Source: Escherichia coli (GTDB taxonomy: Bacteria > Pseudomonadota > Gammaproteobacteria > Enterobacterales > Enterobacteriaceae). Taken from it: a DNA stretch of 366 nucleotides. Positions 1-366 of the stretch are shown here, one piece after another; within the stretch, counting starts at the first letter, position 1; each line of letters opens with the position of its first letter. The position numbers and the translations under genes were made by a program. The notes below the pieces were generated by a model. It saw only the letters and a list, made by a program, of their open reading frames with translations, did no database searches and had not been told where the DNA came from. The stretch lies in the NCBI RefSeq assembly GCF_003334305.1, contig NZ_QOWS01000082.1; one strand, given 5' to 3'.

Positions 1-62
1 AATTTGAGAGACTCACGAACAACTTTCGTTGTTCAGTGTTTCAATTTTCAGCTTGATCCAGA

Positions 63-75
63 TTTTTAAAGAGCA
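63..75 (-). promoter_or_regulatory. boxA-like antitermination motif of the rrn spacer (NusB/NusE binding-site type)
   Basis: Minus-strand sequence TGCTCTTTAAAAA (reverse complement of plus 63-75) differs at one position from the rrn leader boxA TGCTCTTTAACAA. It sits just downstream (in the transcript) of a hairpin, giving the boxB-then-boxA order typical of rrn and lambda nut antiterminators. Functional assignment rests on established knowledge of E. coli rrn operons. Confidence 0.7.
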
Positions 76-76
76 A

Positions 77-114
77 ATATCTCAAACATCACCCGAAGAT
101 GAGTTTTGAGATAT
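77..114 (-). promoter_or_regulatory. boxB-like RNA hairpin upstream of boxA in the spacer transcript
   Basis: Minus-strand RNA ATATCTCAAAACTCATC-UUCG-GGTGATGTTTGAGATAT folds into a 17-position stem capped by a UUCG tetraloop. It has one G-U wobble and a 2-nt internal mismatch (C-U, A-G), with 14 Watson-Crick pairs. Pairing was checked by hand. The boxB role is inferred from its position next to boxA. Confidence 0.5.
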
Positions 115-148
115 TAAGGCAGGTGACTTTCACTCACAAACCAGCAAG

Positions 149-224
149 TGGCGTCCCCTAGGGGATTCGAACCCCTGTTACCGCCGTGAAAGGGCGGTGT
201 CCTGGGCCTCTAGACGAAGGGGAC
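149..224 (-). tRNA. tRNA-Glu (anticodon UUC), complete 76 nt with encoded 3' CCA
   Basis: Reverse complement of 149-224 is GTCCCCTTCGTCTAGAGGCCCAGGACACCGCCCTTTCACGGCGGTAACAGGGGTTCGAATCCCCTAGGGGACGCCA. It has a 7-bp acceptor stem (GTCCCCT/AGGGGAC), anticodon loop CUUUCAC with anticodon UUC, T-arm GGTTCGAATCC and terminal CCA. This is identical to E. coli tRNA-Glu as I recall it. In E. coli the spacer copies are gltT/U/V/W; which copy this is cannot be determined from the window, so the symbol is left empty. Confidence 0.97.
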
Positions 225-309
225 GTATCAGTCTGCTTCGCAAGACGCCTTGCTTTTCACTTTCTATCAGACAATCTGTGTGAGCACTTCAAAGAACGCT
301 TCTTTAAGG
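225..309 (-). other. 16S-23S internal transcribed spacer, segment between the 16S 3' end and tRNA-Glu (85 nt)
   Basis: Lies between the mature 16S 3' end (310) and the tRNA 5' end (224) on the same strand. Minus-strand sequence begins CCTTAAAGAAGCGTTCTTTGAAGTGCTCACACAGATTGTCTGATAGAAAG..., which resembles enterobacterial spacer sequence as I recall it. Contains no ORF and is part of the pre-rRNA transcript. Confidence 0.9.
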
Positions 310-366
310 TAAGGAGGTGATCCAACCGCAGGTTCCCCTACGGTTACCTTGTTACGACTTCACCCC
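310..366 (-). rRNA. rrs: 16S ribosomal RNA, 3'-terminal 57 nt (partial; gene continues beyond the right edge of the window)
   Basis: Reverse complement of 310-366 reads GGGGTGAAGTCGTAACAAGGTAACCGTAGGGGAACCTGCGGTTGGATCACCTCCTTA, the canonical 3' end of bacterial 16S rRNA including the anti-Shine-Dalgarno CCUCC and terminal UUA. Match to the E. coli 16S terminus is from memory, not a database search. Confidence 0.96.

Follow-up and report, generated by a model that had tools for sequence, protein, structure and literature searches.

The tRNA-Glu-type 16S-23S spacer of Escherichia coli very probably carries the spacer copy of the rrn nut-like antitermination signal, a conserved hairpin directly upstream of boxA

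The stretch of DNA analysed here (366 nucleotides, called the window) is a 16S-23S spacer of Escherichia coli of the tRNA-Glu type, in which the rRNA sense strand is the minus strand. On this strand a stable UUCG-capped hairpin is directly followed by an exact boxA, and we are confident that this module represents the nut-like antitermination signal of the E. coli rrn operons in its spacer copy. The spacer boxB-boxA element is already known and nothing in the sequence contradicts the identification; the primary papers, as they are presented in PMC6614797 and PMC10250234, are those of Berg, Squires and Squires (1989) and Pfeiffer and Hartmann (1997). The initial annotation of this DNA had labelled the module as known biology, and this label is appropriate, given that the position, the hairpin-then-boxA order, the strand and the sequence all match the published spacer nut-like site. 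Our analysis bears out what textbooks describe and brings no new biology. What is mildly new is how strongly the spacer hairpin covaries across a bacterial order, despite the drift of its sequence, and this sharpens the question of what the rrn boxB is for.

The rrn sense orientation is supported by two genes. The last 57 bases of the 16S rRNA occupy 366..310 of the minus strand (Rfam SSU_rRNA_bacteria model positions 1477-1533, and RefSeq annotation), and the spacer tRNA-Glu(UUC) occupies 224..149 of the same strand (ARAGORN; Rfam tRNA, 60.1 bits; RefSeq annotation), with its 3ʹ end 33 bases upstream of the hairpin. A match to the window is present in all 5426 E. coli genomes of our collection, and many complete genomes match it over its whole length at 100% identity. 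In strain 120899 the matching locus, L001, lies downstream of clpB and shows the order 16S, tRNA-Glu, hairpin, boxA and 23S; boxA is found there at 2592 and 23S is annotated from 2712 onwards, which places boxA about 120 bases upstream of 23S. The spacer boxA is thus located, in the rrn transcript, between the 16S rRNA with the spacer tRNA on one side and the 23S rRNA on the other. The window contains no protein-coding sequence that bears on the module.

The boxA consensus given in the literature is UGCUCUUUA (PMC6614797), and the sense strand of the rRNA in the window carries it as UGCUCUUUA(A). The spacer boxA, UGCUCUUUAAAAA, a proposed binding site of NusB-NusE(S10) at which the rRNA antitermination complex would nucleate before 23S, lies at positions 63..75; the minus strand reads TGCTCTTTAAAAA from 75 to 63, and a single base (76) separates it from the hairpin at 114..77. 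The exact 10-base core, TGCTCTTTAA, occurs once in the window, at 75..66 of the minus strand, and in 0 of 200 shuffled sequences, so the boxA-like sequence proposed earlier for 63-75 of the transcribed strand turned out to contain the exact core. When two mismatches were allowed, the core was no longer significant, as it was matched in 66 of 200 shuffles, and the weight of the boxA assignment therefore rests on the exactness of the match.

Next to boxA, the minus strand reads ATATCTCAAAACTCATC-TTCG-GGTGATGTTTGAGATAT from 114 to 77. RNAfold of the segment 120..60 of the minus strand gave a lower stem of 11 pairs, a 2x2 internal loop and an upper stem of 5 pairs, capped by a C(UUCG)G tetraloop that can be read directly in the sequence at 98..93. 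The minimum free energy of this hairpin was -17.9 kcal/mol, in comparison to -6.3 +/- 2.4 kcal/mol for 200 dinucleotide shuffles (z = -4.9), none of which folded as well. In the fold, the pair A115-U76 is added to the stem, which extends the hairpin from 114..77 to 115..76 and brings it into direct contact with boxA; the boxB-like hairpin is therefore given here as 76..115 of the minus strand, with inverted repeat arms at 76-91 and 100-115. The hairpin was unchanged when the entire 148-base segment after the tRNA was folded. The UUCG-capped hairpin that had been predicted at 77-114, and for which folding of the minus-strand transcript had been suggested as a check, is thus a stable one. The complementary plus strand folds more weakly (-13.2 vs -17.9 kcal/mol) and lacks a stable tetraloop, and together with the orientation of the genes this rules out a plus-strand reading of the module. 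A search of the hairpin against Rfam, with E values up to 10, returned only chance-level matches of the snoRNA type (E 0.19-0.5, far below the gathering scores), and in the Rfam search of the window no family was found to model the boxB-boxA module.

To examine the copies of the module within E. coli, we compared the stretches from the leader to the 23S rRNA in all seven operons of K-12 MG1655. The boxA core was present once in each of the seven leaders and once in each of the seven spacers (14/14 positions), with no further core matches in these stretches or in L001. The leaders carry the variant TGCTCTTTAACAA in 7/7 cases, and the spacers carry the 13-mer TGCTCTTTAAAAA in 7/7 cases. At all 14 copies a hairpin ends 2-3 bases upstream of boxA, in either the minimum-energy or the centroid fold, and the sequences of these hairpins fall into three types in the spacers and at least three in the leaders; the leader hairpins are short and G+C-rich, and individually they were not significant in comparison to shuffles. 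The alignment with the leader boxA and the comparison across rrn copies, both proposed with the initial annotation, thus came out in its favour, as the core is shared with all seven K-12 leaders and is kept at all 14 positions, and the stem shows compensatory changes across copies and species.

No K-12 operon is identical to the window over its full length, and the hairpin-boxA module of the window is the version of rrnB, rrnC and rrnE, the spacers of which are identical to it in both hairpin and boxA. In the rrnG spacer the lower stem is the same as in the window except for one mismatch, and the upper stem is wholly different but again self-complementary (CAGACU-GUUA-AGUCUUG). The Ile/Ala-type spacers of rrnA, rrnD and rrnH (L006, L004 and L002) carry an unrelated hairpin, ACUUCAGAGUGUACCU-GCAA-AGGUUCACUGCGAAGU (-15.5 kcal/mol), that ends 3 bases before boxA, with the same boxA and the same downstream sequence. 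We also noticed that the operon L001 of strain 120899 carries the rrnB/C/E-type hairpin of the window, unlike K-12 rrnG (L003) at the same clpB-adjacent position, where the upper stem is swapped for ACAGACU-GUUA-AGUCUUGU. This difference suggests gene conversion between operons, or hairpin tips that are exchanged like cassettes. A hairpin of the form 'CUUCAG...GCGAAGU', similar to the Ile/Ala type, also occurs in some Glu-type spacers from other genera (e.g. L072, L073, L087 and L104). The 59-base module as a whole was found in 5366 of the 5426 E. coli genomes, at a median of four places per genome, and five of its places sit on plasmids. In the eight records listed, of 5370 with a match, RefSeq holds no annotation under the match to the module.

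For the comparison across species, one genome per species was scanned for TGCTCTTTAA located 65-95 bases after a tRNA-Glu T-arm. This gave at least 120 loci from other Gammaproteobacteria, namely Enterobacterales and Aeromonadaceae (e.g. Zobellella), with 100 distinct sequences of 46 bases plus boxA. As the exact core was the search anchor, the invariance of boxA in this set holds by construction, and the loci are a non-random sample of related sequences. Among the 100 distinct spacers of the matches listed, 93 had, in a count that needs no alignment, a minimum-energy fold whose last hairpin ended 0-1 bases before boxA. In 86 of these 100 distinct sequences, all of which enter this statistic, the hairpin that ended there had at least 8 pairs; this was so in 16% of 3000 dinucleotide shuffles, and the median z score was -5.0. 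The spacers of Aeromonadaceae have a different hairpin, a shorter one, which yet adjoins boxA.

To follow the pairing itself, we aligned the window with 84 of the 100 distinct spacers among the matches listed (MAFFT, 85 sequences in total); the 16 left out were of the Aeromonadales type, near-duplicates, or a few others that had long insertions or could not be aligned in the stem. RNAalifold gave a consensus of 12 pairs, of which 11 showed compensatory changes. For the 16 pairs of the window, standard pairing was kept in 93.7% of the alignment cells, in comparison to 25.7-45.5% when the 3ʹ partners were slid by one to three columns, and 13 of the 16 pairs had changed on both sides, in comparison to 5-9 of 16 with slid partners. 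Cells with a double change numbered 147, as against 33 +/- 4.7 in column shuffles; since the sequences are related, the shuffle control overstates the significance, and the control with slid partners is the fairer one. The degree of pairing together with the compensatory changes indicates that the structure of the hairpin is under selection and its sequence is not. Thus a hairpin lies immediately 5ʹ of boxA in the window (z = -4.9), 13 of its 16 pairs covary, and the same adjacency recurs in 93 of the 100 spacers among the matches listed. The loop was UNCG in 41 of the 100 distinct spacers among the matches listed (mostly UACG, UUCG, UGCG and UCCG) and GNRA in 8. With regard to the boxA 13-mer, its ending in E. 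coli is AACAA in 7/7 leaders and AAAAA in 7/7 spacers; among the 100 distinct Glu-type spacers of other species in the matches listed, AACAA was found in 56 and AAAAA in 40, and the distinction between leader and spacer at position 11 is therefore not general.

The structure of the hairpin is clearly selected, and it could have been kept for a reason other than antitermination, as an element of spacer processing or stability, with its adjacency to boxA being incidental; it might, for instance, limit how far the 3ʹ trailer of tRNA-Glu is trimmed or, as a nuclease determinant, fix where spacer fragments end. We consider this explanation unlikely, although it accounts for some of the data. In earlier studies boxB was reported as dispensable and its presence as puzzling (PMC6614797, PMC10250234), and a stable processed fragment, StyR-44, detected by northern blot, has its 5ʹ end 5 bases into boxA, immediately 3ʹ of the hairpin (PMC2943607). 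Against this explanation speaks the position of the hairpin, which ends 0-1 bases from boxA in 93 of the 100 distinct spacers among the matches listed. Hairpins of unrelated sequence, in a different upstream context, likewise adjoin boxA in the leader, which has no tRNA, and in the Ile/Ala-type spacers. The constant partner of the hairpin is therefore boxA and not the tRNA. We also know of no nuclease site at the spacer hairpin.

The 5ʹ part of StyR-44 itself (Rfam RF01830) matches the window at 1..71 of the minus strand with 81.5 bits (gathering score 54), and the match stops at the end of the window. In L001 the match is full-length (2596-2704, 124.9 bits); its first base is base 5 of boxA (CUUUAAAAAUCUGG...), and its last lies 8 bases before the 23S start at 2712. 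StyR-44 therefore overlaps the last 9 bases of boxA and the spacer up to about 8 bases before the 23S rRNA, and it excludes the hairpin and the first 4 bases of boxA. Its discoverers stated that a metastable intermediate of rRNA processing could not be excluded (PMC2943607). The cloned 109-nt StyR-44 RNA looks like the piece of the spacer between boxA and the RNase III cut of the 23S rRNA, and its 5ʹ end within boxA may have arisen through protection by NusB/E or through cleavage by a nuclease immediately 3ʹ of the hairpin. A second hairpin, at 17-34 of the minus strand (GAACAAC-GAAA-GUUGUUC, 7 pairs with a GNRA tetraloop), lies downstream of boxA; it belongs to the consensus structure of StyR-44, and the Rfam alignment marks compensatory positions in it.

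A stable stem-loop followed by a U-rich stretch, UUUGCUCUUUAAAAA, could also be taken for an intrinsic terminator or a hairpin-dependent pause site within the operon, formed by the hairpin and UUUGCUCUUU. This is very improbable, because the U-rich stretch coincides with the exact boxA, the U tract is not continuous and A and U are abundant in the lower stem, and because termination before the 23S rRNA would work against an operon that has to yield its rRNAs in equimolar amounts. In agreement with this, the promoter and terminator scan was blank at the hairpin on the sense strand, and an intrinsic terminator, with a G+C-rich stem and an uninterrupted run of U, was rejected for lack of a sense-strand call at 63-115. 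Finally, chance co-occurrence of a hairpin and a boxA-like word without function, suggested by the small size of the motifs and by the lack of significance of the boxA 10-mer with two mismatches, has a negligible probability and is refuted by conservation and covariation, given an exact boxA in 0/200 shuffles, a fold z of -4.9, conservation in 14/14 K-12 copies and covariation over 85 sequences.

The preferred reading of the module as the spacer nut-like signal does not make it the only regulatory content of the window, as had been claimed before. The trailer strand of the 16S leader-trailer helix is also present, at approximately 262..305 of the minus strand; the processing of this helix by RNase III has been described (PMC10250234, PMC6614801). 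RNAduplex of the leader (L001 685-745) with the trailer of the window gave -57.7 kcal/mol, in comparison to -24.8 +/- 3.8 kcal/mol for 200 shuffles, and the trailer (about 305..262) shows nearly perfect complementarity to a leader segment that begins just downstream of the leader boxA and runs through boxC. A boxC-like sequence, TGTGTGAG, is seen on the plus strand at 277-284 and is the complement of the 16S trailer strand. Only one terminator-like call was obtained in the window; it consists of GCAAGACGCCTTGC and then TTTTCACTTT, at 240-253 of the plus strand, which is antisense to the operon. Read in the sense direction, this palindrome forms a small hairpin of the 16S trailer that resembles the leader segment CGTCGCAAGACG.

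In earlier studies the boxA RNA was described as bound by NusB-NusE, which leads to Rho-resistant transcription and efficient synthesis of 23S rRNA (Nodwell and Greenblatt 1993, Berg 1989, and Pfeiffer and Hartmann 1997, as cited in PMC6614797, PMC10250234 and PMC12541390). Both the leader and the spacer sites of rrn were described as boxB-boxA, with boxA as the NusB/E site (PMC10250234, PMC6614797, PMC6614801, PMC8632103), and the complex of NusA, NusB, NusE, NusG, SuhB and S4 as Rho-resistant (PMC6614797, PMC6614801, PMC8632103). Besides Rho resistance, the complex has been assigned a role as RNA chaperone and in processing (PMC6614801, PMC8632103, bioRxiv 10.64898/2026.03.17.712431). According to the 'delivery' model it keeps the nut-like RNA of the leader or spacer at the polymerase, so that the 5ʹ strands meet their 3ʹ partners, which are made later (PMC6614797, PMC6614801, PMC8632103). 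In a 2026 preprint the stably assembled complex was shown to lessen pausing and to increase co-transcriptional cleavage by RNase III (10.64898/2026.03.17.712431).

On the basis of this literature, the spacer module would act as follows. The NusB-NusE(S10) heterodimer would bind boxA as it leaves RNA polymerase and, together with NusA, NusG, SuhB and S4, would form the rrnTAC around the RNA exit channel, which would suppress pausing as well as Rho-dependent termination. The rrnTAC may keep the nut-like RNA at the polymerase and thereby offer the 5ʹ strands of long-range helices to their 3ʹ partners and to RNase III processing, and the spacer copy would establish or renew the antitermination state for transcription of the 23S rRNA. 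The spacer boxA would let RNA polymerase carry the antitermination and chaperone complex into the 23S rRNA, which bears on equimolar rRNA synthesis and on 50S biogenesis.

In the literature, boxA is necessary and sufficient for recruitment of the factors, and the presence of boxB is called 'puzzling' (PMC10250234); the rrn boxB is a hairpin without consensus sequence and dispensable for antitermination (PMC6614797, PMC10250234). Since deletion of the leader boxB gives little phenotype (PMC10250234), the contribution of the hairpin to antitermination is only putative. We infer that the spacer hairpin is most likely not a protein-specific boxB but a local fold that exposes a single-stranded boxA: by locking up the upstream trailer, it could let the A/U-rich boxA emerge single-stranded, with the distance to a structured boundary held constant. 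That the hairpin has its own specific function, either as a folding insulator that secures the accessibility of boxA and with it the kinetics of Nus loading, or as a contact for a subunit of the rrnTAC (such as NusA or S4), is a tentative possibility, less probable than not; it is raised by the compensatory changes across Enterobacterales, by the near-invariant spacing of 0-1 bases and by the UNCG caps, which are far above chance.

Among known systems, the module resembles nutL and nutR of phage lambda in having a linear boxA bound by NusB/NusE and an adjacent hairpin in the nascent RNA, with a Nus-factor complex on RNA polymerase (PMC6614801, PMC8632103). The order is reversed: in lambda, boxA lies 5ʹ of boxB, and the same reversal relative to lambda has been described for the rrn leader and spacer (PMC6614797, PMC8632103). 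The lambda boxB carries an N-binding loop with a GNRA-like fold, and the loop in the window is UUCG. In a host without N protein, SuhB and S4 take the organising role in rrn (PMC10250234, PMC8632103). A lambda-type N-binding boxB, with a short stem and a purine-rich GNRA-like loop, was ruled out by the UUCG loop and by the absence of N from the host (PMC10250234). The name 'boxB' is thus a positional label for the spacer hairpin, which is boxB-like by its position alone.

The closest relative outside the spacers is the E. coli rrn leader antiterminator (boxB-boxA-boxC), located downstream of promoter P2, which the initial annotation had described as mirrored by the module. This held for the boxA core (TGCTCTTTAA in both) and for the order, with the leader hairpin 2-3 bases 5ʹ of boxA, and the mechanism with Nus factors is the same according to the literature; it did not hold for boxC, which does not follow the spacer boxA. 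The leader boxA is TGCTCTTTAACAA and the spacer boxA TGCTCTTTAAAAA, and the G+C-rich leader hairpin is unrelated in sequence to the spacer hairpin. The leader boxC (TGTGTGGG) stands 14 bases after the leader boxA, within the 16S RNase III helix, whereas the GU-rich TGTGTGGG, searched with up to one mismatch, was absent 3ʹ of boxA on the sense strand of the window; the sole boxC-like match in the window belongs to the 16S trailer helix and is on the other strand. The spacer site thus consists of boxB-boxA and does not repeat the complete boxB-boxA-boxC of the leader. Since boxC is not required for antitermination (PMC6614797), the spacer site can nevertheless belong to the nut-like signals. In comparison to the published E. 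coli spacer boxB-boxA, the window represents the Glu-type version, and it shows no difference of substance.
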